DNA of 64,000 bases from an uncultured Elusimicrobiales bacterium. GTDB taxonomy: Bacteria; Elusimicrobiota; Elusimicrobia; Elusimicrobiales; Elusimicrobiaceae. Position numbers and translations under genes: made by a program. The stretch covers positions 11,002-75,001 of the forward strand of contig CALUVB010000010.1 of the NCBI GenBank assembly GCA_944324115.1. Reading direction: 5' to 3'. Positions 1 to 52,631 of the stretch are shown piece by piece (position 1 is the stretch's first letter; every line of letters starts with the position of its first letter). The notes under the pieces were generated by a model. That model made no database searches. It had not been told where the DNA came from and was given only the letters and a program-made list of their open reading frames with translations.

Positions 1-546
1 TCTTTGGTCAAAAAAGTGACCACTGCGCTGGGATTGGATATTTTCCCTGAGCCAAATGAAGAAAACAAAGGGAAAATTACGTTCTCTTCCGGCTCTGGCA
101 CATATAACTTTACAAACGGTTTGATGACGGTGCAGGAAACTCATTTTGATTCCGCCGTCAGCAATATTGAAGCTTCCGGCAACATCAATTTCAAAACGGA
201 AGAACTGGATATGCGGGTAACAGCCAGCGTACTGACAGACCAAACCCCCGTTGTCATTAAAATAGGGGGCACATTGAACGATCCTTCCGGCAAACTAGAC
301 GTTGCCGGAACGGCCACTTCCTTGGTAAAAGGCCTGCTCAATCCCAAAACGGCCGCTGACGCCGTAACAGGCACCGGTAATGCCGCCAAAGCAGTAGTAA
401 GCAAAACGGCTGATGTGGGAGCTAATGTAGTAGATGTGGGAACCAACGCCGTAAAGGATACAGTTGGCGCAGCTTCAAATGTAGTCAAAGGTATTTCTTC
501 TCTATTTAAAAGCAAAGACAAAGACACCGCTCAAGAAAAGAAATAA
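1..546 (+). CDS. AsmA-like C-terminal region protein (5' truncated by window edge)
   Basis: Frame open from base 1. The beta-rich tail (GLMTVQETHFDSAVSNIEASGNINFKTEELDMRV...VIKIGGTLNDPSGKLD) resembles AsmA/YhdP C-termini. Followed by a hairpin. Confidence 0.6.
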   Translation, partial: SLVKKVTTALGLDIFPEPNEENKGKITFSSGSGTYNFTNGLMTVQETHFDSAVSNIEASGNINFKTEELDMRVTASVLTDQTPVVIKIGGTLNDPSGKLDVAGTATSLVKGLLNPKTAADAVTGTGNAAKAVVSKTADVGANVVDVGTNAVKDTVGAASNVVKGISSLFKSKDKDTAQEKK

Positions 547-552
547 TCAGCA

Positions 553-586
553 AGCCAAGGCCCCTGCAGGGGCCTTGGCTATTTTA
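553..586 (+). terminator. Perfect 28-bp palindrome, intrinsic terminator-like
   Basis: agccaaggcccc-tgca-ggggccttggct at 553-580, followed by atttt, 7 nt after the stop codon. Confidence 0.75.
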
Positions 587-830
587 TGAAGTTTCGCTCC
601 AGACAGCGCCGGCTTGGCCTCCTGCAGGTCAAACCGGGGGAAAAGCATATTGGATAAAGTTACAAGGGATTGGTATTCTCTTACTATTTGTTTTAACTCG
701 CTTCAGCAGCATATTTTGTTCATACAAAAGATCCACACCCCGTATTGCGCACTATTGCCTGCCCTATAATATTCCTCATTTTTTTACCCGCAGGATTTGC
801 AGGCCTGTTTTGGTGCAGAAAATCTAGTAG

Positions 831-872
831 AAAAAAAAATACCGCTTTCTTTGGTATACAAGAAAGCGGTAT
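831..872 (-). terminator. Intrinsic terminator of the 932-1588 gene
   Basis: 13-bp stem ATACCGCTTTCTT/AAGAAAGCGGTAT with an 8-nt loop, followed by a T-run on the minus strand. Confidence 0.75.
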
Positions 873-931
873 GTTAAAAATATTTCGTTGCTGAAACGGA
901 AATATTCTCTACTAAAAATTAGACTACTTTA

Positions 932-1588
932 TTAATGCTTAAGTTGATCTTCCAAAGAAGGTCTTTCAACATAAGTAATTTCCGACCAATCCGTAAGCAA
1001 ATAAGCCTTCAGCCCCGTACCGTCTGCCTCCGGCCCCGGCACCTGCTGCCAGTTAAGCTTGGAAGAAAGAGTCCCCGCCGCTGAGGTAGCAGGGGTATTT
1101 AAGACAGCAGTATCCGTAATTTCCATGGTGCGGAAATTAGCCGCTTGGGTTGTAATAGGATTGCTATGCACCATAGCCGCTTCTCCCGTTTCTTTTCCGC
1201 CATCGTCTACCAATATGCGCTGGGGAGAAGTATTGCGCGCTTGCAAGCGGCCGCCTCTAAAATCAGCCGTACTGCCGATATGAATGGGGCCCAATCCCAG
1301 TTGCACGACAAATTCCTTCACATTGCCGCCCAATGTGGCATGAGGACGGACCAAGAGCTGGCTGGCTTGCACGGGATAGGTATCCGTTCCAGAAACGGAA
1401 ATAGTACCCAAAGAAGATTGGGTATTGCAAAAATTCAAATGATATATTTCGGCAGGCTCATCTTCCACAATCTCTACTGTTGAAAAACTGCCCACCGGCT
1501 GAGAAAGCAATGTCACAAAAGACATTTCTTCGGCGCATAATACCCCGCTTGTCAAAATCAAAACCGCTCCAAGACAAAAAGATTTCAT
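932..1588 (-). CDS. Hypothetical secreted protein
   Basis: Signal peptide (MKSFCLGAVLILTSGVLCA), RBS gaggtgag, upstream TTGACT-N18-TATAGT, own terminator. Confidence 0.75.
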   Translation of the reverse strand: MKSFCLGAVLILTSGVLCAEEMSFVTLLSQPVGSFSTVEIVEDEPAEIYHLNFCNTQSSLGTISVSGTDTYPVQASQLLVRPHATLGGNVKEFVVQLGLGPIHIGSTADFRGGRLQARNTSPQRILVDDGGKETGEAAMVHSNPITTQAANFRTMEITDTAVLNTPATSAAGTLSSKLNWQQVPGPEADGTGLKAYLLTDWSEITYVERPSLEDQLKH

Positions 1589-1816
1589 ATCCTCACCTCA
1601 TTTATTTAGGGAAACCCTGTTTTTTCACTATACATTAAGCATAAGCCATAAGTCAAGAAAATACAAGTGTTTCACTGCTTAAAAATAGAAGGGCCCATTC
1701 CACTCCAAAAACTCATCTTAACGTACTGTCCGCAGGTTTCTTTTTAAACAATATTCCCATCGAAAGCCACCCCTTTTATTACGCCCTAAAAAATTATTTT
1801 CTCACCTCATAAACAT

Positions 1817-1842
1817 AAAAAAACCGCCCGCAGGCGGTTTTT
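1817..1842 (-). terminator. Intrinsic terminator
   Basis: AAAAACCGCC-cgca-GGCGGTTTTT immediately after the stop of 1846-2316. Confidence 0.75.
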
Positions 1843-1845
1843 GTT

Positions 1846-2316
1846 TTATAACTGGTCCAGAGGTTTTTCTTCCAAACTCTGCGCCATTTTGGCGAACAAT
1901 TCTTTAATTTGCTTAATTTTATCCACCGGCAGACGAATGCCTTTCTTTGTCCAGCCTTTATAACTCTCATCTTCCTGCCATTGGCGGAAATCCAGCCCGC
2001 GCGTTCCTTTAAAACTGCTTACCCGCACCACCACCGACATGCCGGGCCGTTTGGCGAACTTGCCCAACTCCACGTCCGTCAGCTGTGCGGGGTCGTCTGG
2101 CAATGCCGCCAACAAAGGCGCCACCGCTTTTACAATCTCAGGTGTCATGGTAATGCCTGCGCGCGTTGCTCCGGTATAAGCGCCAGAAGTCAAGTATTTA
2201 CGTATAGAAGCATAACGATAACCACGATACGCATCAATGGAAAATCGGATTTCGCTGCTTTCATCTAATACCAAAACACCAATATTATTAAGTACCGCAA
2301 AACTACTTTCTGCCAT
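1846..2316 (-). CDS. Tandem PC4/YdbC-like ssDNA-binding domain protein
   Basis: Two PC4-like motifs: YRGYRYASIRKY...TRAGITM and FKGTRGLDFRQW...TKKGIRL. RBS ggagg. Confidence 0.7.
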   Translation of the reverse strand: MAESSFAVLNNIGVLVLDESSEIRFSIDAYRGYRYASIRKYLTSGAYTGATRAGITMTPEIVKAVAPLLAALPDDPAQLTDVELGKFAKRPGMSVVVRVSSFKGTRGLDFRQWQEDESYKGWTKKGIRLPVDKIKQIKELFAKMAQSLEEKPLDQL

Positions 2317-2473
2317 AAAAAATCCTCCGCCTTAAAAGGCCCGTGTAGTCCATGACAAAATATGCTATGATAAGGGGGCCCGCTTATATTGTAACGATTT
2401 ACAGCCGGCAAACGCAAGCAGTTTTTGTATAATAAATATAATACTTTTCAATATCATATATCAGAGGTCAGCT

Positions 2474-4786
2474 ATGTTAGATGGTCAGTCATTAATAGGC
2501 AAAGAAATCTCCGGCTGCGAAATTCTGACAAAAGTAGCAGAAGGCGGAATGGGGGCCGTATTCAAAGCCCGGCATAAAGCACTCAACCGCATTGTTTGCG
2601 TTAAAATTTTAAGTCCCGCCTTAGCAAATGATAAAAAAGCCGTTACGCTTTTTCTGACCGAAGCCCGCGCTATTGCAGAGCTGGACCACCCAAATATCGT
2701 CAATGTTTACAACGTAGGCAAAGAGCAAGGCTACTATTTTATCGTCATGTCCTTTGTAGAAGGGCAGACCCTTTCCGCCATGCTGAAAAAAGAGCGCATT
2801 TTGCCTATTGGCCGGGTACTGGATTTGTTTGACGGAGTGCTTAAAGGGCTTTCCGTCGCTCACGAAAAAGGCATTATTCACCGGGATATCAAGCCTTCCA
2901 ATATTTTAATCACCCCGGAAGGCCGCCCCAAGATTGTGGATTTTGGTATTGCCAAAAAAGTAGATAAAGAAAAAGGCTCCACCAAAACGACAGAACTGGC
3001 TGGTACGGCTTACTTTATTGCGCCGGAGCAGGCATTGGGCAAAGACATAGACACCAGGGCAGATCTCTATTCCATTGGTGCCAGTATGTATTATGTGCTG
3101 ACGGGTCATTTTCCCTATAATGGTAAAAACACCATTGAAATCATTCAAAAACACATCAACGAACCGGTACCCAATCCATCTAAATTGCGTACGGATTTGC
3201 CGGGTTGGCTCTCTTTGGCTATACAAAAACTCATGAGCAAAAACCCAGACGACCGTTTCCAAACCGCAAAAGAAGTGTATACCTATTTCAATAAAATGCG
3301 CGCAGAGGAACAGCTGCGCGTCAAAACCATGCACGGCCGCGCCGCGATTGATTTGGGGATAGAAAGTTCTCTCAGAATCGTCAACGAAGAAAAACACAGC
3401 ACGGACACCTTGCGCCAAATGAGCGGGGAGGATTTTTACCGGGCTCTTTCCCAGCGTAACACCAAACCCGGGCATAAAACGCCCACCCAAATGCCGCAAT
3501 TAGATGATTTGACGGAAGGAGCCAACAATCCCATGCCAAAATCCGCTCCTCCGCCGGCGCCTACCCAAGAGCTGGTGCCTCCGCGCCCCGTTAAAAAGAC
3601 CACTGTCCCGTCTTCAACATCTGCCGCTTTGGCAGCAATCAAAGCTGGACAACAGATGAAGATGATTGGGCAGCTGTTCGTTTTGCTTCCTTTGTTTTTG
3701 TTATTTGCCGTGCTATGCAGTTATATTTTCTTCCGTTTCGGAAAAATCTGCTCCATATATGTGTCCGAAACACAAGGTTTTCTCTCCAACATTTTGGCTC
3801 CGCTTACTTCAGGCAAAATGAGCGCAAGCCAACTGCTTTATGGGGCACTGTCTTTGGTGGCGTTGTGCAGCATTTTTGTCATATCCGCCGTAAGAGCCTA
3901 CGCCAAAACTACAGCTATTATGCTGGCTTTGGCGGTAGCTTCTTATTTGGCGGGCATGTTTACGCCCGACGTGCCATTCTTCAATACGCAAAATATGGCA
4001 GAATACCTCTTTTCCGCGGAGTATTACTTATGCTATCTGCTGGTAGCCGCTGCCTGGGTTATTTCTCTGTGTTGGCGTTTGGACCGCACCTGGCCGGAAC
4101 GTATTTTGGGAACGGCCTTGATTGTCCTGTCTGCCGTTTTGGTATTTAGAGGAACGGCCTTAACTATTCCGCCGGATTTGAGCAGTATGGCAACTAAACT
4201 GTTATTTGCCGGGGCCGTGCTGTTTGCCATCTTGGCTATATATTATTTGGCCGCCAAAGCGGAGCATAGTATTATTTTGCCTTCTATCTGTTTCTTGCTC
4301 AGTTTGGGTTGCTTTTGGTTTTACAATGTATCCGGTTTAGCCAACCATGCCCAAACGACACTTAACACCTTGGCCGAAACCATACCCATGGAAGCACCCA
4401 CCCAGCAACAAGTGCAAGCCATGCAGCAGGAAGAATTCTTAGGCATATCCCGCCCGAATCTTTTCAGCTCTTTTGCCGAGAGTAAAGCGGTGAACTATAT
4501 GTCTGAAGAAGAAAAATATAAGACATTAGACGAAGCTATCGTGAAATATGCAGATCCCTTCATTGCTCCGGAGCAACGGCCTTTGTTTATTCAATTGCTC
4601 AGCAGTTATTATTTGAGCGGTTCTAATAAAGTGGCATTTAAAATATGGGACTTCTCTGTCAGTTATCCATTGAACAATTTCAATCGTAACGCACAAGATA
4701 ACAACGCTTATTCTTTCTTAGTATTGGTACTGTTTATCTTGGCCGGTTTAAACTGTGCAGGTGGAATTCTGTTTAAAGAGGACTAA
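2474..4786 (+). CDS. Hanks-type Ser/Thr protein kinase with multi-pass membrane C-terminus
   Basis: EGGMG, VCVK, HRDIKPSN, DFG and APEQ motifs, a Pro-rich linker, then roughly 8-9 hydrophobic segments. Confidence 0.93.
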   Translation: MLDGQSLIGKEISGCEILTKVAEGGMGAVFKARHKALNRIVCVKILSPALANDKKAVTLFLTEARAIAELDHPNIVNVYNVGKEQGYYFIVMSFVEGQTLSAMLKKERILPIGRVLDLFDGVLKGLSVAHEKGIIHRDIKPSNILITPEGRPKIVDFGIAKKVDKEKGSTKTTELAGTAYFIAPEQALGKDIDTRADLYSIGASMYYVLTGHFPYNGKNTIEIIQKHINEPVPNPSKLRTDLPGWLSLAIQKLMSKNPDDRFQTAKEVYTYFNKMRAEEQLRVKTMHGRAAIDLGIESSLRIVNEEKHSTDTLRQMSGEDFYRALSQRNTKPGHKTPTQMPQLDDLTEGANNPMPKSAPPPAPTQELVPPRPVKKTTVPSSTSAALAAIKAGQQMKMIGQLFVLLPLFLLFAVLCSYIFFRFGKICSIYVSETQGFLSNILAPLTSGKMSASQLLYGALSLVALCSIFVISAVRAYAKTTAIMLALAVASYLAGMFTPDVPFFNTQNMAEYLFSAEYYLCYLLVAAAWVISLCWRLDRTWPERILGTALIVLSAVLVFRGTALTIPPDLSSMATKLLFAGAVLFAILAIYYLAAKAEHSIILPSICFLLSLGCFWFYNVSGLANHAQTTLNTLAETIPMEAPTQQQVQAMQQEEFLGISRPNLFSSFAESKAVNYMSEEEKYKTLDEAIVKYADPFIAPEQRPLFIQLLSSYYLSGSNKVAFKIWDFSVSYPLNNFNRNAQDNNAYSFLVLVLFILAGLNCAGGILFKED

Positions 4787-4792
4787 AAAAAC

Positions 4793-5614
4793 ATGAGCAC
4801 TTTTGATATTGAATTTGCCGCCGTCACAGATATAGGTAAAATCCGGGAAAAGAATGAAGACAATGTCCTCATTTCCTCCGATTTAGGCTTAGGGGTTGTC
4901 GCAGACGGAATGGGCGGACACAGCGCGGGAGAAATAGCCAGCAGTATTGCTGTATCCGTGCTGGCCGAGACCATACGGAAAATTAATATGGGGGCGCTTA
5001 AAATACCAGATACATTTTTGCCTAAACTGGCCCCCACGGAACGCAAACTGCTGATGGCGGCCAATCTTTCTAATGCCGCCATTTATTCCACGGCACAGTC
5101 TTCCGATATATATAAAATGATGGGAACAACCTTGACCGGAGTCTTGTTTGATAAAGACTGCGCTATCGCAGTGCATGTGGGGGATTCACGCATTTACCTT
5201 TACCGGGACAATAAAATTGTTCAAATTACCACCGACCACTCCCTCGCCATGGAACATGTGAGAAGGGGGCTTTTGTCTAAAGCAGACGCAGACAAAAGCA
5301 AAATTCAAAATGTTTTAACGCGGGCGATGGGAATTAAGAAAAACATAGAATTTGACTTGTTGAAGTTTCCCGTTCATGCGGGAGATGTATTGGTGTTGTG
5401 CTCAGACGGCCTTTACAAAGGCCTGACGGAGCAGGCTATTGGCGAAATATTGGCCAAAGACAAAGATATGCCCATTGTGAAACTTTGCAAACATTTGGTG
5501 CGCATATCCAATGAACGTGACGGGCAAGACAATATTTCAGCCGTAGTAATTAAGATTCTGCCGCCTAAAAAGCTTTCTTTTGGGCAACGGGTGCGCCGTT
5601 TCTTTACCAAATAG
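4793..5614 (+). CDS. PP2C-family (Stp1/PrpC) Ser/Thr phosphatase
   Basis: TDIGKIREKNED, VADGMGGH, HVGDSR, CSDGL and DN motifs; 6 bp after the kinase. Confidence 0.95.
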   Translation: MSTFDIEFAAVTDIGKIREKNEDNVLISSDLGLGVVADGMGGHSAGEIASSIAVSVLAETIRKINMGALKIPDTFLPKLAPTERKLLMAANLSNAAIYSTAQSSDIYKMMGTTLTGVLFDKDCAIAVHVGDSRIYLYRDNKIVQITTDHSLAMEHVRRGLLSKADADKSKIQNVLTRAMGIKKNIEFDLLKFPVHAGDVLVLCSDGLYKGLTEQAIGEILAKDKDMPIVKLCKHLVRISNERDGQDNISAVVIKILPPKKLSFGQRVRRFFTK

Positions 5615-5638
5615 AGCTTCTGACCAAATATATTTGCA

Positions 5639-5668
5639 GACCGGAGCGCTTGAAAGCTCCGGTCTTTC
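5639..5668 (+). terminator. Terminator of the kinase-phosphatase operon
   Basis: GACCGGAGC-N8-GCTCCGGTC followed by tttct. Confidence 0.65.
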
Positions 5669-6063
5669 TATATACTCAAATTGCCGGCTCTCATACACAG
5701 CGCCGCTCCATGTGGGGGCGTCTAGTAACTAAGCGGCTTTTCTCAATCAAACGAGGCCACAAGGCTTCTGACTGTATACTAACACAACCAGCCCCTTCAA
5801 CGAGGGAAGGGGAGAAATTAACCTGCCTTTTTGTCCCAGATTTACCCATTATTTACGCATGAAAACATAAAAGATGTGTCATTTGAGCCCACTTTTTTCG
5901 GGAATTATATTTAAAAATCTGCCTTTGCTTTTCCTACTCCTTTGCTTGCCAAGGGCGTTTATTTTATACTATTTCCAATTAAAACCACTCTATATTTACG
6001 TCTGAGAATTCAGTGCGCTGCTCATCAGCGGCAAAATTCTTTTTTAGCAATCATGGCAAAGTA

Positions 6064-6092
6064 TTGACAATTATCTTTTTTTATGCTAAATT
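6064..6092 (+). promoter_or_regulatory. Sigma70 promoter of groESL
   Basis: TTGACA (6064-6069), 17-bp spacer, extended -10 TGc-TAAATT (6087-6092). Confidence 0.8.
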
Positions 6093-6117
6093 AGCATTAA
6101 TCCCGCTGGAGTGCTAG
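6091..6117 (+). promoter_or_regulatory. CIRCE element (HrcA operator)
   Basis: TTAGCATTA-N9-GAGTGCTAG versus consensus TTAGCACTC-N9-GAGTGCTAA, directly upstream of groES. Confidence 0.85.
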
Positions 6118-6164
6118 TTTAATATCCGGCGGAAACAATTCTAAAAACTAAGGAGTGGGTGAAT

Positions 6165-6458
6165 ATGAGCGATGTAAAAATTAAGCCTCTTGGCGACAGA
6201 TTAATCGTCAAGCCGATTGAACGTGAAACCATGAAAGGCGGCATTATCATTCCTGATACCGCCAAAGAAAAACCCATGGAGGGGGAAGTGTTAGCTGCAG
6301 GACCGGGAAAACTTGACGATAAAGGCAACCGCATGCCTATGGACGTCAAAAAAGGCGACCGGGTGCTTTACGGCAAATATTCCGGTACGGAAATCAAATT
6401 AGACGATGAAACTTATTTGATTATTCACCAAGATGAAATTCTGGGTATTTTAGGGTAA
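6165..6458 (+). CDS. groES: Co-chaperonin GroES
   Basis: [24 protein letters not shown] and KYSGTE motifs. RBS aaggag favours the ATG at 6165. Confidence 0.98.
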
Positions 6459-6476
6459 AAAGAGGAGAAAATTTAT

Positions 6477-8114
6477 ATGGCAAAACAAATTGTTTTCGGC
6501 GATGAATCCCGCGCCAAAATGAAAGCCGGCATTGAAAAAGTAGCCAATGCCGTAAAAGTAACTTTGGGTCCTAAGGGCCGCAGCGTTGTGCTGGAAAAGA
6601 AATTCGGCTCTCCGCTTATTATTGATGACGGCGTGACGATTGCTAAAGATATTGAGCTGGAAGATAAATTTGAAAATATGGGCGCCCAGCTTATCCGTGA
6701 AGTGGCCGCCAAAACCAACGACGTCGCCGGTGACGGCACCACCACCGCAACCGTATTGGCTGATGCATTGCTTAAAGAAGGAATCAAAAATATTACGGCC
6801 GGCGCCAACCCGACCTTGGTGAAAAAAGGCATTGAAATGGCGGTCAGCACCGTAAAAGAAGAATTGGCCAAAATGCAGAAACCGGTCAAGACCAAAGAGG
6901 AAAAAGCGCAAATTGCCACTATTTCTTCTAACGACCGTGTCATTGGCGAACTGATTGCCGAAGCAATGGAAAGAGTAGGCCACGAAGGCGTAATCACAGT
7001 AGAAGAAGGTAAAAGCGCCGAAACCAAACTAGACGTGGTGGAAGGCATGCAATTTGACCGCGGATACATCTCCCCGTATTTTGTAACCGACCCGGAAAGA
7101 ATGGAATGCGTCTTGGAGAATGCCTATATCATTATCACGGACAAGAAAATTTCCTCTATGAATGACTTGTTGCCGATTCTGGAAAAAATCGTACAGAGCG
7201 GCCGCCCGTTCTTGATTGTAGCAGAAGATGTAGACGGAGAAGCGCTGGCTACGTTGGTGGTCAACAAGTTGCGTGGTACGCTTAAAGGCTGCGCGGTCAA
7301 AGCCCCCGGCTTTGGAGACAGACGCAAAGAAATGTTGCAGGACATCGCCACGCTGACTGGCGGCGAAGTCATCAGCGAAGAACGCGGCATGAAGCTTGAT
7401 AAAGCCGAAATCACCATGCTTGGCCAGGCTGACCGCATCGTAGTGGACAAAGAGAATACCACCATCGTCAGCGGCAAAGGCGACAAAACCGCTATCGCCC
7501 AGCGCGCCGACCAAATCCGCAAACAGATTGAAAACTCCACCAGCGATTACGACAAAGAAAAATTACAGGAACGCTTGGCGAAACTCTCCGGCGGGGTAGC
7601 CGTTATCAGCGTCGGTGCAGCCACCGAAACGGAAATGAAAGCCAAAAAAGCCAAAGTGGAAGACGCCAAAAACGCCACGAAAGCCGGTGTGGAAGAAGGC
7701 CTCGTTCCGGGAGGCGGTGTAGCATTGGCCCGCTGCCAAAAAGTCTTGGACTCTTTGAAAGCAGACAATGAAGACATTAAAACGGGTATTGCCATCGTGC
7801 GCAAAGCTCTTACGGCGCCGTTGCGTCAGATTGCGGTCAATGCAGGTTTAGACGGCGCGGTCGTGGTGGACAAAGTATTATCCATGAAAGGCCAAGCTGA
7901 CGGTTTTGATGCCGAAAACGGCACCTATGGAGACCTGTTGAAAGCCGGCGTAGTGGACCCGGCAAAAGTGGTCCGCACCGCATTAGAAAATGCGGCTTCT
8001 ATCGCCGCTACGGTACTGCTCACTGAAGCTTTGGTGGCAGATGCACCGGAAAAAGAACATTCCCACGGCCCGGCAGCCATGCCAGGTATGGGGGGAATGG
8101 GCGGCATGATGTAA
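6477..8114 (+). CDS. groEL: Chaperonin GroEL
   Basis: [24 protein letters not shown] motifs and the GGM-rich tail. Confidence 0.99.
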
Positions 8115-8132
8115 TTTAACCCGCACTAGACC

Positions 8133-8159
8133 AAAACCCCGCCGAGAGGCGGGGTTTTT
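8133..8159 (+). terminator. groESL terminator
   Basis: AAAACCCCGCC-gaga-GGCGGGGTTTTT. Confidence 0.85.
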
Positions 8160-8500
8160 CTGTTTACAACACATACAGGGAATAAAACGATAAGATGGCG
8201 CGAAACGAAACTGCGCTTTCCGTCCACGCCGCTTTTTCTTTCTGTCCTTTTATAATATCCTTGCAGCAGTCGGCATTTTAACCATCAAAAGCAGCCCAGA
8301 AACCCGTTTACTCCGCAAGTTCCAAATGGCAGCTGGAACAAGGGCTAGGAGCCTGACTTTCAGCATGAAGCCGCAGCCGCCACAAAAAGAAACGGAGGCC
8401 CGCATTTTTCAAAACGCCGCTTTATTGACCGGAAAATCTCCCCTTGAAGGTATGCTCAAAAGGTGTTATACTATAGAAAATGCCGCAAAAGGACTAAATT

Positions 8501-9370
8501 ATGAAAAGATTAATCTCATTTATGTTAGTATGCAGCTTGGCTGCATCTGTTGCTTATGCCCTAGAAACGGACAAACTGGAACAGGTGGTAAAAGAAAAAA
8601 CCGCCGAAATCAAGACATCCTATCCTTCCAATTTCTCTAAAGAGGAAGGGGTTTTGATGTTGTCTATAAAAACGGAAGAAATCAGAAACATAGAAGATAT
8701 TGATATGTCCGGCGAGACCGCTTTTTTTACTAAAAGCTATTCCTACCGCTGCCCGGCTGTAAAAGTATATAATAACTGGTTGCTGGCCAGCGCTTCCTGC
8801 GTACACGCCACCAGAGGAGCTTACAAACATTTTACATTAGATGGTTATGAAATAGATGCTTCTCAAATCATAGGATTAGAGGACTATTCCTCTTCCGTCG
8901 TAGCTATTTTCGTGCCCCACAAAGAAAATTCCCGCTTGGTGCATACCTTGAGCGCCATGCCGCAAGCCAATATCATGATCCTTTCCGACACAGCAACGGC
9001 CCAGGATATAACGAATTTAAACAACTTCTATATCAACCGCCAGCGCCTCAGCGGCATCGGGCGCACCACAGCAGAAGTAAAGCCGGATTTGCAATGTGAG
9101 CAGGACAAATGTGTATTGACGCTGGAAAATAAGTTTATTAACGGCGATTATGGAGACCCGCTTTTCAGCGTATCGGAAAATGGCCAAGAATTTTTGCTCG
9201 GCTTCAACGTCAGCAATCAAGGTTTCTCCGGTCGTTCGGGCTGCCAATACGCCCTGTTTACCGACAAAGACCTGCAAGCAATCCAAAAAGCCATTTCAAC
9301 CACGACACCCCGCTTTTGGCCAGAGATAAAACGGAAAATCGTAGATGAAAAGTTTTTAGCTTCACATTAA
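8501..9370 (+). CDS. Secreted protein, probable catalytically degenerate trypsin-like (S1) fold
   Basis: Signal peptide. CPAVKVYNNWLLASASC resembles CxxxLIxxxWVLTAAHC, and GDYGDPLF resembles GDSGGPL. Confidence 0.6.
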   Translation: MKRLISFMLVCSLAASVAYALETDKLEQVVKEKTAEIKTSYPSNFSKEEGVLMLSIKTEEIRNIEDIDMSGETAFFTKSYSYRCPAVKVYNNWLLASASCVHATRGAYKHFTLDGYEIDASQIIGLEDYSSSVVAIFVPHKENSRLVHTLSAMPQANIMILSDTATAQDITNLNNFYINRQRLSGIGRTTAEVKPDLQCEQDKCVLTLENKFINGDYGDPLFSVSENGQEFLLGFNVSNQGFSGRSGCQYALFTDKDLQAIQKAISTTTPRFWPEIKRKIVDEKFLASH

Positions 9371-9374
9371 ACAC

Positions 9375-9398
9375 AACCCCCGGTTAAACCGGGGGTTT
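9375..9398 (+). terminator. Intrinsic terminator
   Basis: AACCCCCGGT-taa-ACCGGGGGTTT. Confidence 0.75.
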
Positions 9399-9593
9399 AT
9401 TATGGGGCGCGCACCCAAATTTTCAAGAAAGAACCAAACCGCCATAACTTTGACCGGGGTTATTTCGGAGCGCTTTCTAACATTCTTAAAAAACTAATTA
9501 CTTTTATAATAAACGAAAAAGGAAAAGAGAATTCAATTAGCCGTTCAAATTTTATAAAATAAATATATATTAAATATACGGAGGTAAACACTT

Positions 9594-10316
9594 ATGGCAA
9601 GCGGCAATCCGCTTTTTAACGAAAAGGCCTACCAACAGGCCATGAACCGCACCGAAGCAGCCATGACTCTGCAAGGCACTATCAATAAGACTTTTTTTCT
9701 GCTGTTGTTATGTGCCATAGCAGGTATGATTGCTTTCAATCGCCCGGCGCTCACTGCATTTATGTGGCCGGTAACGATACTAACTTTTGTTATAGCCTTG
9801 ATTGTTATTTTCAGCAAAAGGACCGCCCCGATATTGGCCCCGGTATATGCACTGGGGGAAGGATTTGTGTTGGGGGGAATTTCTGCTATCTATAATGCCC
9901 AATACCAAGGCATCGTGTTCCAAGCCGTTGCCATTACGCTGCTGGTATTTTTTACCATGTTGTTCTTGTACAAAACAAGAATCATTAAAGTTACCCGCGG
10001 ATTGGCAATAGGCATTGTCTCCGCCACAAGCGCCATCGCCTTATTTTATGTCATTTCGTTTGTTCTGATGCTTTTCGGAGTCAATGTAAGCTATTTCTCC
10101 AGCACCAGTTTACTCAGTATTGGCATTAATGTTGTGATTTGCGGCGTAGCAGCATTCAACTTCTTGCTGGATTTTCATTTTATAGACGAGCTGACCTCTC
10201 AGGTATCAGCCCCCAAATACATGGAATGGTATGCGGGCTTCTCTCTGTTGGTCACTCTGGTATGGTTGTATTTGGAAATTCTCAGATTGTTGGGCCGGGT
10301 GAACAGCCGCAACTAA
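9594..10316 (+). CDS. Bax inhibitor-1/YccA family membrane protein
   Basis: About 7 TM helices, N-terminal MTLQGTINKT, C-terminal YMEWY...LLVTLVWLYLEILRLL. RBS ggaggt. Confidence 0.9.
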   Translation: MASGNPLFNEKAYQQAMNRTEAAMTLQGTINKTFFLLLLCAIAGMIAFNRPALTAFMWPVTILTFVIALIVIFSKRTAPILAPVYALGEGFVLGGISAIYNAQYQGIVFQAVAITLLVFFTMLFLYKTRIIKVTRGLAIGIVSATSAIALFYVISFVLMLFGVNVSYFSSTSLLSIGINVVICGVAAFNFLLDFHFIDELTSQVSAPKYMEWYAGFSLLVTLVWLYLEILRLLGRVNSRN

Positions 10317-46508: not shown

Positions 46509-48074
46509 TTAAAACAAGAACCCTAACATCAAAGAGAGCGCCGCCGAATCCGGCACGCTGGTACCGTCAATATCCGTGCTTCCGCTGCTCATCGCTCCAG
46601 CCAGCTCCAGGTGAAAATGAGCCATATTTAACCCCAGTCCCGCCGTATAAAAAGCAGACACCGCGCTGGAAGAAAGGTTTTTGTTAAATCCTAACCGCAG
46701 GGGAATATTGAACGTAGAACGGTTAAGCAGGTTAAGCTCCAGCCCCAAAGCCAGCTGACGGGATTTGATCTCATCAAGCAATGTATCGTTTTCCGTCAAA
46801 TCCAAATCCATAGCCAGCGTCATAAACGGCAAAGGATTAATGGCCGCACCGGCACGCACTTGAGGTTTCAGCTGATATTTGTCTGTATTCCACTGCGCAG
46901 CAATAGCCGGATTTAAATCCGCCGGCGCTGCCGGGCGGTCAAATTTCGGACCATTCAGATTTTTTACCGTTAAACCCAACTGGGGGTTAAGCCATACTTC
47001 CCGGTCCAACGCGCGGGAAAAATTAAATTGCGCCCCCAAATCCACGCCGATATTAACGCTGTTTTCTTTATTGTCATAAGCTTTATCAAAGATGTCTTTT
47101 ATATCTTGGTCATCGCTTAAAATCATTACACCGCTTTGCGCCATATATCCGTCAATGACTTTCAAGTTTGCGCCCAGTTTCAATCCGGGCATTACCTGGG
47201 CCCCATAACCCAAAGCAATTTCCGCAAAAGTAGCCGCATCTGCCATGGCCAACGTCTGGTTGTCCGCATAAGAGCCGGAAGAAGAAGCAGCTTGGTTAAT
47301 AATTTGAGCCGCACCGCCCATGCTGCCCACTGCTGCACGGACTGCCTCAGCAATTTGCTGGCTGGTGCCGCCGGCCGAAGCCGCGGCATTGATAAATGCA
47401 TTAGCCAGCTCCTGGCTGCTGGAATAACCGCCGCCAAGCAATTGATTCAATGCGTCAAATACGCCATGTTGATCTATAGCCTGCGCCAAAGCATCTGCCG
47501 AGGATTGATTGCTGCCGGCGGAACCCGTAGAGCCTAATTGTAAACCCGCACCCGCTCCGGCGAAACCAATATTTTTAGTATCTACCACCGGCATAATAGC
47601 CATACTGCCTAGTGCACGCGCGGTAACGGCAAAATTCTTAATTTTCAAACCAGCTCCGGCATTGGCATCTACCAAGGCTCCCATATTTTTTCCAACTAAT
47701 TTGGATATATCGTCAAGACCTTCAAAAATGGTGCTCAAATCGCTCGCTGTAGCCGTATAACCGTTCTCTATGGCAGAAGCTAAATTTTTGTAGCGGTCCG
47801 CCATATCCGTTAAATCCCGCACGCCTTCCAATACGTTTTCCGCCGCCTGCAGGCTGGCCCCTGCCGTCAAGGAAAAACCGGCATCGTTTACGTCATCTTC
47901 CGCAGCCAAACCCGCCGGGTTCCAATATTGCGCATCAGCTCCGTAAGCAGTAGCTACGCCGGCACCGCCCATACCCATAGCACGGGTGCCCACCATTTGC
48001 CAGGACTGTGCCTGTAATACAAGTGGGGAAAATACCGCCAGCAAGGCGGCTAACAAAAGGACTCTTTTTTTCAT
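46509..48074 (-). CDS. Outer-membrane beta-barrel, TraF_2/FadL-like family
   Basis: Signal peptide; GTRAMGMGGAGVA...YWNPAGL; amphipathic strands; terminal Phe. Confidence 0.75.
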   Translation of the reverse strand: MKKRVLLLAALLAVFSPLVLQAQSWQMVGTRAMGMGGAGVATAYGADAQYWNPAGLAAEDDVNDAGFSLTAGASLQAAENVLEGVRDLTDMADRYKNLASAIENGYTATASDLSTIFEGLDDISKLVGKNMGALVDANAGAGLKIKNFAVTARALGSMAIMPVVDTKNIGFAGAGAGLQLGSTGSAGSNQSSADALAQAIDQHGVFDALNQLLGGGYSSSQELANAFINAAASAGGTSQQIAEAVRAAVGSMGGAAQIINQAASSSGSYADNQTLAMADAATFAEIALGYGAQVMPGLKLGANLKVIDGYMAQSGVMILSDDQDIKDIFDKAYDNKENSVNIGVDLGAQFNFSRALDREVWLNPQLGLTVKNLNGPKFDRPAAPADLNPAIAAQWNTDKYQLKPQVRAGAAINPLPFMTLAMDLDLTENDTLLDEIKSRQLALGLELNLLNRSTFNIPLRLGFNKNLSSSAVSAFYTAGLGLNMAHFHLELAGAMSSGSTDIDGTSVPDSAALSLMLGFLF

Positions 48075-48285
48075 TTTTTCTCCTGTGTAAACACAAAGAT
48101 ATGTTTATTTTTGCATATCCCCTATATTTTGTCAATATGAAAAATCACTGGACTTATGCCCGGAGTTTTTTACTGAGAAATGTCAGTCCATCTTTTGGGT
48201 TTGAGACAAAACTAGTTGGAGAAAAATAGCGGGGGAAAACTCCTCATTCTGCGGGCTTGCAAACAGCGGTTTAAAGAAAAGGCAT

Positions 48286-48312
48286 AAAAAACCCCGCCGA
48301 AAAGCGGGGTTT
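48286..48312 (-). terminator. aax operon terminator
   Basis: AAAAAACCCCGC-cgaaa-GCGGGGTTTT, 17 bp past the aaxC stop. Confidence 0.8.
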
Positions 48313-48329
48313 TGAAAATAAGGACTTAT

Positions 48330-49799
48330 TTAAAGGCTGACCAGCCCGCGAGAAAACACATACACCGCCACTAAAGCCGCCAATACAAGCAAACACATGA
48401 CGATTTTTTCTCCCGTACTGGAAAAAATGGGGTTTCCGTCTTGTTGTTGGCGCCGTGCCCAGACAAATACAGGCACTCCCAACGCCAAGAAAATAACCGC
48501 CATAAATAAATATTTCAGCCCCGCCGCATACACCAGCCATAAGCCGTATCCCGTACCGATAAGGGAGGTAAACAGCGCTGCGGCGCGGCCTTTCTTGGCC
48601 ACTTGGCTGTATTCGCCGTCTTCCACCAATTTCCACAGATACGCCGTACTGAAAATATACGCCGGCAGCACCATAACCCCGGTAATAGAAAGCATGGTAT
48701 TCCAGGCATTATTAGAGAAATATACCAACAAAATGGCCAACTGCATTAAAATACTGGTCACCCACAAAGATACACTGGGGGAACCATTTTTATTTTCCCG
48801 CGCAAACTGTTTGGGGAAAGTGCCATTTTGGGCGGCTGCCTGCGGTATTTCGGCGCAAATCATGGTCCAAGCCAGCCAGCTGGAAAGCACCGCTATCACA
48901 AGACCAATGTTCATCACCCAAGCACCCCACGGGCCGACTACTTTTTCCAATACGCCGGCGGTTGAAGGATTGGCAATAGAAGCAAGCTCCTGCTGGGTTA
49001 AAAACCCAAACGGCAACAACGAAAGCAAAATATAAATCACCAAGCAGCCCAAGAAACCCAATATAGTGGCTTTGCTGACGTCGCTTTGGCTTTTGGCGCG
49101 GTTAGACATCACCACCGCCCCTTCTATGCCGATAAACGCCCACAGCGTGACCAACATGGTGCTTTTGAGCTGGGCTCCCAATCCGCCCAAACTTTTGCCG
49201 CCTTCGGCCATTTTGCCCCAAAAGTTAAAATCAAACTTATCCAAATGAAAACTAAAGAGCAAAATAATGATAAACAAAAACAGCGGCACCAGCTTGCCCA
49301 CCGTACCGACAATGTTCATCACCGCCGCCTGGCGCACCCCGCGCAGCACCACAAAATTAAATACCCATATCAAAATGGATCCGCCGATAATGGACCACAA
49401 ATTATTTCCTCCCTGGAAATAAGGCGGGAAAAAATAATTCAGCGCGTCCATCGTAATAACCGCATAGCCCACATTGCCAAAAATTTGACACAGCCAATAT
49501 CCCCAGCCAATGGTAAAGCCGGCATACGGGCCAAACCCCTCCCGCGCGTACATATAAATGCCGGCGGTTAAATCCGGCTTTACACGGGAAAGAATACTAA
49601 ACGTATTGGCAATAAAATACATGCCGATTCCCGTAATGACCCACGCCAAAAGGACAGCCCCGGCGCTGGCGCCGGCGGCCATGTTTTGGGGGAGGGAGAA
49701 AATCCCGCCCCCAACCATAGAACTGATAACAATACTAGCCAGGCCGATAATGCCCAGCTTTTTGACCGCAGAAACGGACGAGTCGTTATTTTCTGCCAT
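48330..49799 (-). CDS. aaxC: Arginine/agmatine antiporter (APC family)
   Basis: [61 protein letters not shown], as I recall them from chlamydial AaxC. Start at ATG 49799. Confidence 0.9.
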
Positions 49800-49818
49800 A
49801 GCTCCCCCAAGAAAAACC

Positions 49819-50430
49819 TTAGTCCATCGGTTTGACGCCTTTGGCTGTAGCCAGCGGCGCAAATTTAAAGTTTAAAAATCCCATTACAGTCAAGCAATAC
49901 GCAAACGGTTTGGTAATGTTGATGTAATTGTGCCACATCTGGAACTCGCTGTGTTTCTCTACGCCGCGGATTTCCAGCTCGTGCTTTAAGGATTTATTAA
50001 GCCACATTTCACAATGGCCTTTGGCAATTTCATCGTCAATAGGCGTATCAAAATATTCCACATATTCCGCCGCCCAGCCTCCGACCAGGTTGCCTTTTTT
50101 GTCTTTGCCCCAGCATACTCCTAAACCGGTGGCAATGGCTTTGTGTTCGGTAATATTGGCTCCATTGCCGGCCATAATCACTTCCAGTACGGCGCCATGT
50201 TTGAACTGATCAGCCACGGCATCAACCGGTACGATGTTTTGATACAGCTCTTTGGGCAGCACCGAGGTATAAGGCACCACGTTGAAGTTTTCTATCTTGG
50301 CCTGCAAGAGTGCAGAATCGTAGCAGAACGTCTCAAACGGCTGCGGCGGAATACCATCTTCTGCCTGTCCGGCTCCGCCGGAAATAAACGCTAAGGTAGG
50401 ATAGCGAGTCCCCAATTGAATGTCTTGCAT
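49819..50430 (-). CDS. aaxB: Pyruvoyl-dependent arginine decarboxylase, chlamydial type
   Basis: [37 protein letters not shown]|[27 protein letters not shown]. Confidence 0.93.
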
Positions 50431-50457
50431 AGTTTTCTCCTTTTATGTCCAGTATGT

Positions 50458-51690
50458 TCACAGCATAATTGTAGTCCGCAAGCCCGCCACTGTTACCACA
50501 TGATTACCGCCATCTAAAGCAGCCCGCGGATAAATTTGCACATCTGGGGTAATGGTCAACATCTTGCCTATACCCCACACCCATTGCAGTTCCACCGCTG
50601 TTTCTCCGCTGCGCCAGAAAGTGGGATAACCCAGCGCTTCTCCGTCGGCGCGGTTATATACCACACCCAGTGTGATAACGTCTAATATGTTGCGGTTGAA
50701 CGGATTTAAATAAGAAAGCGCCAGCGCATAGGAGTTTTTAATGGTGTTAATATTTCCGTCTGAGCCGTTTGCCCGGGCGGAAACGGCCCATTTTTTGCCG
50801 AAGTTTTGACTGGCGTTAAACGACCAACCCCGCCCTATGCCCGGCTGATCGGACACGGAAGGCTGATAATAATACAGAAAAGAGTATTGTCCCGCGCCCA
50901 GCCCCTTAATAGTGGGGCTGTAGGAGATGGAGCCAAACCATGTATAATACCCGCCAAAAGCGTGGTTTAACTGTATGGTCTGCCCGTCTATATTGGAAGC
51001 ATCTTGCCAGCCGGCAGCCAAAGTCCAATCACCCGGGGCGGCCTGTACATAACCGCCAAAGCTGGCTATCGGGTAAACGGAGGTGGCATTTTGGGACAGG
51101 GCATAATTAAACAGCGCCGTTTGCTGATTGTCTAAATAATTGGAGCCGTCAAAATTATAGAGAGGAAATTGGCCTATGGTAAAAGAAAGCCAGTCCATTT
51201 TGCCAGGCAAAGTATGAGTATAAGAAAGCTGGGAAAAAATTTCTTGATTGGCCGTATAATCATTCTGCGCAGACAACAGCCCCAAGCGGTTTTGCAGGGT
51301 AGTGCCTTGTATGCCCCAGTAATGAATATAAGTATAGTTGAAAGTAATCTGCCCGGAACCCAAACGGGTATCAGTAAATAAATCCCAGGAAGCATATGGA
51401 TAATAATAACCTTGAATAGAAGTTTGTTTACCGCTGGGCGCTCCACGTTGGAGTAGGTAACTGATGTCGGCCCCTACCTGCAGACCGAGGTGTTTGGTCA
51501 CATCTTCTTCCCAGCCCAAATATTGTTTGCCGAAAGCCTGCAAAGAATCATGATGCATCAACTGGGTCCTTGCCAGCACGCGCTGGTGTTTGGCGGTGTG
51601 CTGGGTTATGTTGGTTTCTTGGGCCCCGGCAGAATAAAAACAACAGAAAAACATTCCCAAGATTATACCCGCAGCGGCTTTTATATTCAT
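50458..51690 (-). CDS. aaxA: OprB-family outer-membrane porin
   Basis: Signal peptide; SQLSYTHTLPG, IGQFPLYNFDG, DNQQ...NYALSQN; first gene of the aax operon. Confidence 0.82.
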   Translation of the reverse strand: MNIKAAAGIILGMFFCCFYSAGAQETNITQHTAKHQRVLARTQLMHHDSLQAFGKQYLGWEEDVTKHLGLQVGADISYLLQRGAPSGKQTSIQGYYYPYASWDLFTDTRLGSGQITFNYTYIHYWGIQGTTLQNRLGLLSAQNDYTANQEIFSQLSYTHTLPGKMDWLSFTIGQFPLYNFDGSNYLDNQQTALFNYALSQNATSVYPIASFGGYVQAAPGDWTLAAGWQDASNIDGQTIQLNHAFGGYYTWFGSISYSPTIKGLGAGQYSFLYYYQPSVSDQPGIGRGWSFNASQNFGKKWAVSARANGSDGNINTIKNSYALALSYLNPFNRNILDVITLGVVYNRADGEALGYPTFWRSGETAVELQWVWGIGKMLTITPDVQIYPRAALDGGNHVVTVAGLRTTIML

Positions 51691-52016
51691 ACGCCCCCCT
51701 TGAAGTAGTTTTGTTTTATTTACACTAATATTTGCCGGTTCGTACGGGCAAGGGGGGGAAAAGGATTAGATAAAAAAAGACGGAAGGCTCCCGTCTAAGA
51801 TCAAAACAAAAATAACCCTTTTTTTATTATCCGGTTCAGCTTTTTATTATTTATTACTCACTTAAAAATATTCTGTTTTCACTCTACATACCATGTTGTC
51901 ATCTAAAAAATATACTGGCACATGATAAAAAGCCGAAAACAAATAATTACGAAAAGATTGCGCCCAAAGATAAAACTTTTTATACAATATAAATATCTTA
52001 ACTAAGGGGAATAAAC

Positions 52017-52337
52017 ATGAAAAAACTGCTTGCTCTTACCGTATTAGGCGCCTTGTGCTTGGGTGTTGGTTGCGCCGCCAATACTTCTACCGCCGCTTCC
52101 GCTGCCAATACGCCAATGACATTAGATGAAGCGCTGCAAAAATCAGCTGAAACGCGCCAGAAACTTTTAGATGCCAAAGAAGCTTATGAAAACGCCAAAG
52201 CAGCTGCTCAATCCAGCCAAGAAAACAATACCAGTTTCTCCACGGAAATGGCAAAACAAGCCGTACAAAGCAAAATAGACGAATCTAAACAAAAACTCCA
52301 AGATGAAGCAAACGCTTGGAAAGAAGTATTGAACTAA
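52017..52337 (+). CDS. Hypothetical lipoprotein
   Basis: MKKLL...LGVGC lipobox; RBS aagggg; terminator follows. Confidence 0.8.
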   Translation: MKKLLALTVLGALCLGVGCAANTSTAASAANTPMTLDEALQKSAETRQKLLDAKEAYENAKAAAQSSQENNTSFSTEMAKQAVQSKIDESKQKLQDEANAWKEVLN

Positions 52338-52344
52338 TCTTACC

Positions 52345-52372
52345 AACCCCCTGTTCAGCCGAACAGGGGGTT
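52345..52372 (+). terminator. Intrinsic terminator
   Basis: AACCCCCTGTTC-agcc-GAACAGGGGGTT. Confidence 0.75.
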
Positions 52373-52631
52373 AGTGTCTAAACATCACCCAATCAAGTCT
52401 TCTTATCGCTTGAGAAACAAAGTGCGCGCCACAGAAAAGTAACAGAGATAAGGAACGGATCCGTCTCAGAGCCGAATTAACAAAGCGTGTATGGATAATT
52501 GAGCCCATTACCCCAAACTGGCGGCGGCCGGGAAAAAATTTATTAACCCTTTACTCTCTCTAAAAAATCAGCTATCAGTTCCTTGCAAAAGCACTGAGGA
52601 AAATAAATTTTGGCTTTTCCGTTTTAAATAG

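Follow-up and report, generated by a model that had tools for sequence, protein, structure and literature searches.

An intact aaxABC-type operon, probably encoding arginine:agmatine exchange, in an uncultured gut bacterium of the Elusimicrobiaceae

The exchange of arginine for agmatine by an AaxABC system has been characterised in the Chlamydiaceae, where the genes are known as CPn1033–1031 in Chlamydia pneumoniae (Giles & Graham 2007; Smith & Graham 2008; Giles et al. 2009; PMC2720952). Arginine uptake, its decarboxylation and the release of agmatine have been shown for the chlamydial system (PMC2720952 and papers cited therein), and the operon has been treated as a speciality of the Chlamydiaceae, acquired horizontally from an unknown source (PMC2720952). 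Outside Chlamydia, our literature searches on aaxABC returned incidental annotation labels only. In the current study an operon of this type was analysed in a 64,000 nt stretch of contig CALUVB010000010.1 (hereafter, the window), which belongs to an Elusimicrobiaceae bacterium with an assembly of 1.53 Mb (96% complete). The nearest named protein relatives of this host are those of Candidatus Avelusimicrobium, and chicken gut metagenomes contain the same DNA. In gene content, order and intactness the locus is a complete operon of the aaxABC type in a non-chlamydial gut anaerobe, as the first-pass annotation of the window had claimed, and we consider it likely that it encodes a homologue of chlamydial AaxABC that exchanges arginine for agmatine.

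All three genes lie on the minus strand. The aaxA-like gene (nt 50458–51690) encodes an outer-membrane porin of 410 aa with an OprB fold, and is followed by the aaxB-like gene (nt 49819–50430), which encodes a pyruvoyl-dependent arginine decarboxylase proenzyme of the PvlArgDC family (203 aa), and by the aaxC-like gene (nt 48330–49799), the product of which is an inner-membrane antiporter of the APC family (489 aa from the ATG at nt 49799) and a predicted arginine:agmatine exchanger. The spacing is 27 bp between aaxA and aaxB (nt 50431–50457) and 19 bp between aaxB and aaxC (nt 49800–49818). A purine-rich ribosome-binding site is found a few bases 5' of each of the three ATG codons, that of aaxC being GGGGGAG. 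The longer TTG start for aaxC in the list of open reading frames (ORFs), at nt 49862, is less likely, because it overlaps aaxB and has no ribosome-binding site. The operon is closed by an intrinsic terminator (nt 48284–48313, minus strand; hairpin at nt 48288–48313) with an 11 bp stem, a 4 nt loop and a T-run, which folds at −17.3 kcal/mol (z −3.46), a stability reached by none of 200 shuffled sequences. A simple terminator scanner failed to pick up this hairpin, which was revealed by folding, and an Rfam scan gave only sub-threshold matches at this position (Trp_leader, rimP and others) that reflect the hairpin. The layout reported earlier, of porin, pyruvoyl decarboxylase and APC antiporter with short gaps and one terminator, is confirmed by the ORFs and by folding, and the three genes are presumably co-transcribed.

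Genomes were searched with an approximate chlamydial AaxB sequence, used purely as a probe so that chlamydial loci would rank above the more than 100 Elusimicrobiaceae matches. The actual loci of Chlamydia crocodili, of two further Chlamydia species and of a Chlamydiaceae metagenome-assembled genome (MAG) matched it at 78–92%, those of Chlamydia at 84–92%; all comparisons given here use actual Chlamydia genes, taken from loci L005–L009 (Chlamydia crocodili, Chlamydia sp. and the Chlamydiaceae MAG). The window AaxB is 68% identical to that of C. crocodili over 192 aa, and scores 83.8 bits against Pfam PvlArgDC (PF01862; cut-off 22.7). Residues 54–59 read Y-T-S-V-L-P, so that Thr55-Ser56 aligns with Thr52-Ser53 of C. 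crocodili AaxB; the cleavage site described in the first-pass annotation is thus retained, and AaxB is predicted from this motif to undergo self-cleavage at the Thr55-Ser56 bond, which would convert Ser56 into the pyruvoyl group. As a single-sequence query AaxB matched no solved structure in the PDB. A profile built from AaxB-type sequences matches the Methanocaldococcus jannaschii PvlArgDC structure 1N2M (E 1.9e-12), and in this alignment D38, N50, S56 and E122 of the window protein stand opposite D35, N47, S53 and E109, the pyruvoyl serine (S53) and residues known from mutant structures of the M. jannaschii enzyme (the other three).

The canonical PdaD equivalogs are matched weakly (TIGR00286 at 29.5 bits, cut-off 107; NF009064 also far below its cut-off), and phylogeny separates the two types. 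In the AaxB tree, 85 Aax-type sequences, including 5 from Chlamydiaceae, form one clade apart from 10 outgroup representatives with 99% support in the Shimodaira–Hasegawa-like approximate likelihood ratio test, so that the window protein groups with chlamydial AaxB and not with generic PdaD. The subfamily is small, with 143 of 1.84 billion cluster representatives reaching E 0.001. Long N-terminal extensions were seen on some distant AaxB representatives (P0259, P0260, P0265; 387–479 aa). Three loci carry apparent aaxB-aaxC fusions, in one frame without a stop and with ORFs of 684–692 aa (L020, nt 6001–8070; L043, nt 200–2278; L053, nt 1883–3937), two being from Opitutales and one from an alphaproteobacterium. 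In one Chlamydiota genome (G451, contig C1, nt 1102248–1102841) the AaxB match has an in-frame TAG, recalling the published aaxB pseudogenes of some Chlamydia trachomatis strains.

The antiporter gives a similar picture. AaxC of the window is 66% identical to that of C. crocodili over 449 aa, matches Pfam AA_permease_2 (PF13520) at 202.9 bits, and exceeds the cut-off of the basic amino acid/polyamine antiporter model TIGR00905 (583.9 bits, cut-off 409). It falls below the ArcD equivalog TIGR03810 (531.8 bits, cut-off 591), below the cut-off of the histidine-histamine antiporter model (478 bits) and well short of that of the AdiC model (167 bits, cut-off 574). In the AaxC tree the Elusimicrobiaceae sequences group together with 99% support, nested within the Aax sequences. 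The resemblance to chlamydial AaxB and AaxC asserted in the first-pass annotation holds on the actual sequences. With identities to C. crocodili of 68, 66 and 33% for AaxB, AaxC and AaxA, encoded in the same order, the best homologues of the three proteins are not generic PdaD, ArcD and OprB proteins.

The porin begins with a Sec-type signal peptide, read by eye as MNIKAAAGIILGMFFCCFYSAGA followed by QETN. It scores 43.4 bits against Pfam OprB, and its sole NCBIfam match is NF051888, 'porin AaxA' (231.8 bits, E 1.5e-68). An AlphaFold2 model built with 38 homologues is a multi-strand beta-barrel (predicted local distance difference test 77, predicted template modelling score 0.76), the best PDB fold match of which is Pseudomonas putida OprB (4GEY; E 8.5e-19, template modelling score 0.70). 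An OprB-fold barrel with a signal peptide, encoded directly 5' of aaxB and in the same direction, fits the layout of a functional AaxA. In public records this porin is labelled 'carbohydrate porin' and the operon is left unnamed. Some genomes of the same genus have a second AaxA-like porin near the operon, in tandem or just 3' of aaxC (L089, which is G036, contig C20, nt 1–10000; G015, contig C19; G047, contig C75), and in other Elusimicrobiota (G100, G202, G214, G095) such porins occur without aaxBC nearby.

From these data we infer the self-cleavage, substrate, exchange stoichiometry and physiological role of the window system as follows. Arginine would cross the outer membrane through the OprB-fold AaxA and would be imported into the cytoplasm by AaxC, which would swap it for agmatine. 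The self-cut AaxB, with its pyruvoyl cofactor derived from Ser56, would decarboxylate arginine, each decarboxylation consuming one cytoplasmic proton and releasing CO2. Agmatine would then exit via AaxC and AaxA in turn. The net result would be proton consumption and the export of an extra positive charge, which would raise the internal pH and build a membrane potential. The cell would probably gain by surviving the acid of the bird's upper gut during passage and by releasing agmatine into the lumen, and may also conserve some energy. Acid resistance is a plausible role for the operon.

Several observations weigh against this interpretation. To our knowledge, the biochemistry on record is confined to chlamydial members of the Aax system. 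The caecum, the habitat of such bacteria, is near neutral, so that acid resistance may be relevant only while the cells are passing through the upper gut; alternatively, the operon may really serve to gain energy. Neither an acid-responsive regulator nor a riboswitch is visible in the nearby genes or in an Rfam scan of the operon and its leader. The porin is the most divergent component, being only 33% identical to C. crocodili AaxA over 387 aa (E 7e-61). On NF051888, C. crocodili scores 824 bits, another Chlamydia sp. 673, the Chlamydiaceae MAG 493, a gut alphaproteobacterium 326 and the window 231.8; since the equivalog cut-off is 600, the window porin is an AaxA-like relative and not a member of the chlamydial equivalog. 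AaxA-like porins are also found unlinked to aaxBC, so it is adjacency only that marks this one as dedicated to arginine and agmatine. Within AaxB, Pro131 of the window stands at the position of chlamydial Trp128 in the pairwise alignment with C. crocodili, and it was the return of Trp128 to the C. trachomatis L2 aaxB pseudogene that restored activity (PMC2720952). Going by the alignment, Trp128 would not be essential across the AaxB clade. A gut metatranscriptome contig of 262 nt, 100% identical to nt 50068–50329 within aaxB, is weak evidence of expression, as it is one short contig and DNA carry-over is possible.

The same machinery could instead serve mainly to conserve energy, with the electrogenic exchange of arginine(+) for agmatine(2+), together with decarboxylation, generating a proton-motive force at the near-neutral pH of the gut. 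Decarboxylation-antiport cycles do generate a proton-motive force, the histidine/histamine and oxalate/formate cycles working likewise, and the aaxBC genes are stably kept across whole clades in many lineages that are confined to the gut or rumen and live near neutral pH. The lack of an acid-stress regulator near the operon, and the small genome of a fermenting anaerobe without an arginine deiminase (ADI) pathway, point the same way. Against this, a colonist of the chicken gut must pass the acidic proventriculus and gizzard, and the chlamydial enzyme is acid-dependent, to go by the title of Giles & Graham (2007, cited in PMC2720952). Energy conservation as the main role appears somewhat unlikely, and the two roles are compatible and not mutually exclusive.

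It is far less probable that AaxB merely supplies agmatine for putrescine biosynthesis, with AaxC acting as an arginine importer. PvlArgDC enzymes have this function in archaea and many bacteria, and the genome does have an agmatinase-like gene. That gene belongs to the arginase family and adjoins a different decarboxylase, a second and canonical PvlArgDC (PF01862 at 200 bits; 25% identical to AaxB) that lies directly 5' of it on contig C5 (nt 51017–52522). The pair is likely to form putrescine by a PdaD-SpeB route of its own, independent of the aax operon, and polyamine synthesis would thus already be covered; the AaxB-type enzyme, moreover, is always coupled to a basic amino acid/polyamine antiporter and here also to a porin. 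An equally small chance is given to the idea that the system handles another basic amino acid, with ornithine/putrescine, lysine/cadaverine or histidine/histamine as the exchanged pair. AaxC scores high on the arginine-ornithine and histidine-histamine models (532 and 478 bits), all below the cut-offs, and transporters annotated as 'aaxC' stand beside histidine decarboxylases in some phyla according to the gut-microbiome literature (PMC8465708). Pyruvoyl histidine decarboxylases form a different family, however, and AaxB is 68% identical to the arginine-specific chlamydial enzyme and shares its conserved active-site residues with the arginine decarboxylase of M. jannaschii. A search of the 96%-complete genome revealed no arginine deiminase (PF02274), which means that the ArcD-like transporter would not serve an ADI pathway; with TIGR03810 also below its cut-off, ADI-linked arginine/ornithine exchange via AaxC was ruled out. 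Arginine:agmatine exchange remains the preferred reading. A short ORF (287 aa) of the PAD_porph family (agmatine/peptidyl-arginine deiminase-like) was noted elsewhere in the genome, within nt 190810–199290 of contig C1; it lies outside any polyamine or agmatine operon, and its neighbours are defence-like (a WYL-type regulator, a double AAA+ ATPase and a large DUF262-like protein).

The operon proved to be less exceptional than the first-pass annotation had implied. A relative of aaxB is encoded in 550 species genomes, and the best 80 of these loci were compared across bacteria. Their hosts are Chlamydiaceae, gut and rumen Alphaproteobacteria, Opitutales, Elusimicrobiaceae and a Desulfovibrio, representing at least five phyla. 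In 79 of the 80, aaxC lies directly 3' of aaxB, the exception being L059, whose contig stops about 260 bp beyond aaxB. It is the porin that varies. The co-directional A-B-C order was found, among these best 80 loci, only in Chlamydiaceae and Elusimicrobiaceae; the alphaproteobacterial porin is divergent in 18 cases and unlinked in one genome that was checked, and no AaxA-like porin was present in the one Opitutales and one Desulfovibrio genome checked. Among 300 Chlamydiota genomes, AaxB-type genes occur in 25, all of 1.0–1.3 Mb, which fits the published restriction to Chlamydiaceae. Two 'cleanbin' records, one titled Limosilactobacillus gorillae (L045) and the other Lachnospiraceae bacterium (L064), have aaxBC genes nearly identical to those of gut Alphaproteobacteria and group with them in both the AaxB and AaxC trees. 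The former record also has a divergent AaxA-like porin nearly identical to the alphaproteobacterial one. Both are probably mis-binned or mislabelled, as is indicated for L045 by an outer-membrane porin in a Gram-positive bin.

Closer to the window, an AaxA-like porin was detected in 111 of 145 Elusimicrobiaceae species genomes (3 of the 10 genera of the family); for the phylum Elusimicrobiota the figures are 95 of 401 genomes and 4 of 123 genera. Just 3' of the aaxC terminator the window encodes a 521 aa secreted protein (nt 46509–48074, minus strand) with a TraF_2 match and a weak match to PorV, probably an outer-membrane barrel. The arrangement of aaxABC followed by this TraF_2-like gene is syntenic in eight of the window's closest species, and was not matched by common operon flanks in the other genera compared. 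The G+C content across the locus is flat. Given this synteny and the unremarkable G+C content, a recent island insertion was ruled out, and the operon is best regarded as having been present in this sub-lineage for a long time and passed on stably; together with the intact porin in so many genomes of the family, the synteny also argues for purifying selection.

The locus was originally thought to bear on the horizontal origin of the system, and this is not borne out. The phylogenies place the Elusimicrobia no nearer to Chlamydia than other gut groups. In the AaxC tree and in a tree of concatenated AaxB and AaxC, each phylum-level group falls into one or two clades, and the backbone joining them is a polytomy. 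Mean identities between Chlamydia and the gut groups are 72–76% for AaxB and 61–64% for AaxC, and chlamydial AaxA is on average 35% identical to that of Elusimicrobia and 38% to that of Alphaproteobacteria. Because Chlamydia is about equidistant from every gut group, the co-directional gene order is the sole specific link between Elusimicrobiaceae and Chlamydiaceae, and with an unresolved backbone no donor can be named. The clade structure is consistent with a small number of ancient transfers, after which the genes were inherited vertically within host-associated lineages.

A more specific scenario is the joint transfer of aaxA-aaxB-aaxC between a gut lineage resembling the Elusimicrobiaceae and the ancestor of the Chlamydiaceae, the Elusimicrobiaceae being the closest surviving relatives or the donor pool. 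It would draw on the restriction of the gene order to these two families among the best 80 loci and on the AaxA tree, in which Chlamydia is sister to Elusimicrobiota with weak support (82/64). An approximately unbiased test on AaxA does not reject a grouping of Chlamydia with Alphaproteobacteria (p 0.33), and this, the AaxB and AaxC polytomy and the slightly greater likeness of chlamydial AaxA to the alphaproteobacterial porins make transfer as a single unit rather improbable. If true, it would point to the source of the chlamydial operon, unknown since 2007–2009.

The region 5' of aaxA is a divergent intergenic region of 326 bp. A terminator-like scan picked up a hairpin here (nt 51771–51796, minus strand), consisting of 8 GC-rich base pairs followed by T7 and lying about 80–105 nt before the aaxA ATG. 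It folds at −9.4 kcal/mol (z −2.4), and 3 of 200 shuffled sequences fold equally well. The hairpin is absent upstream of aaxA in the other Elusimicrobiaceae loci and genera examined, and the leader gave no match to an Rfam family or riboswitch in the scan of operon and leader. It may be a regulatory leader or an attenuator, or may have arisen by chance, and is at most a candidate component of the system. Other Elusimicrobiaceae (L001–L004, L046, L081) share a promoter-like block, TTGACATTA(N3-4)TAAAATAAT / TTGACATTAGTGTAAATAAT, about 40–70 nt 5' of aaxA, which may be a conserved operator or promoter. The window retains only ATTAGTGTAAATAA of this block, without a good -35 box.

Taken as a whole, the locus is a sound and fairly ordinary functional annotation of a system that is widespread among bacteria of the gut and rumen, across several phyla, and the value of this window lies in that confident annotation and not in discovery. 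Together with its several hundred relatives, it indicates that the aaxBC core, often with an AaxA-like porin, is common in Gram-negative bacteria of the animal gut from at least five phyla. These gut relatives are a concrete pool of candidate sources for the chlamydial acquisition, and abundant uncultured gut lineages are marked by the genes as likely agmatine producers and arginine consumers.

Compared with chlamydial AaxABC, the window operon has the same gene order and orientation and is likewise closely spaced, its genes lying 27 and 19 bp apart and those of C. crocodili 39 and 9 bp, and AaxA has the OprB fold in both, the chlamydial AaxA model being the best family match of the window porin. 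The differences are that the window AaxA is only 33–36% identical and has no counterpart to about the first 120 model positions, that AaxB has Pro131 in place of Trp128, that the genome retains a canonical PdaD, and that the host is a free-living gut anaerobe and not an obligate intracellular pathogen. Nearer to the window proteins than those of Chlamydia are the aaxBC modules of gut and rumen Alphaproteobacteria, Opitutales (Candidatus Merdousia and relatives) and a Desulfovibrio MAG, with AaxB 76–83% and AaxC 63–73% identical to the window. Adjacency of aaxB and aaxC and an animal-gut habitat are common to all of these, whereas their porin is divergent (the 18 Alphaproteobacteria), unlinked (the one genome) or absent (the Opitutales and Desulfovibrio checked), and three of their loci are fused. 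No publication on these modules was found in the literature that could be searched, and their annotations are only generic.

The canonical PdaD of M. jannaschii (MJ0316; PDB 1MT1, 1N13, 1N2M, 2QQD) shares with AaxB the PF01862 fold family, a serine-derived pyruvoyl group and equivalents of Asn47, Asp35 and Glu109; it is very distant, functions in the synthesis of polyamines and has no antiporter coupled to it. In the AR3 system of Escherichia coli, AdiA is a large enzyme dependent on pyridoxal phosphate and not homologous to AaxB, AdiC belongs to another APC subfamily, and there is no dedicated porin. The logic is nonetheless that proposed here for the window operon, with arginine taken in, a proton-consuming decarboxylation, and agmatine passed out through an APC antiporter.

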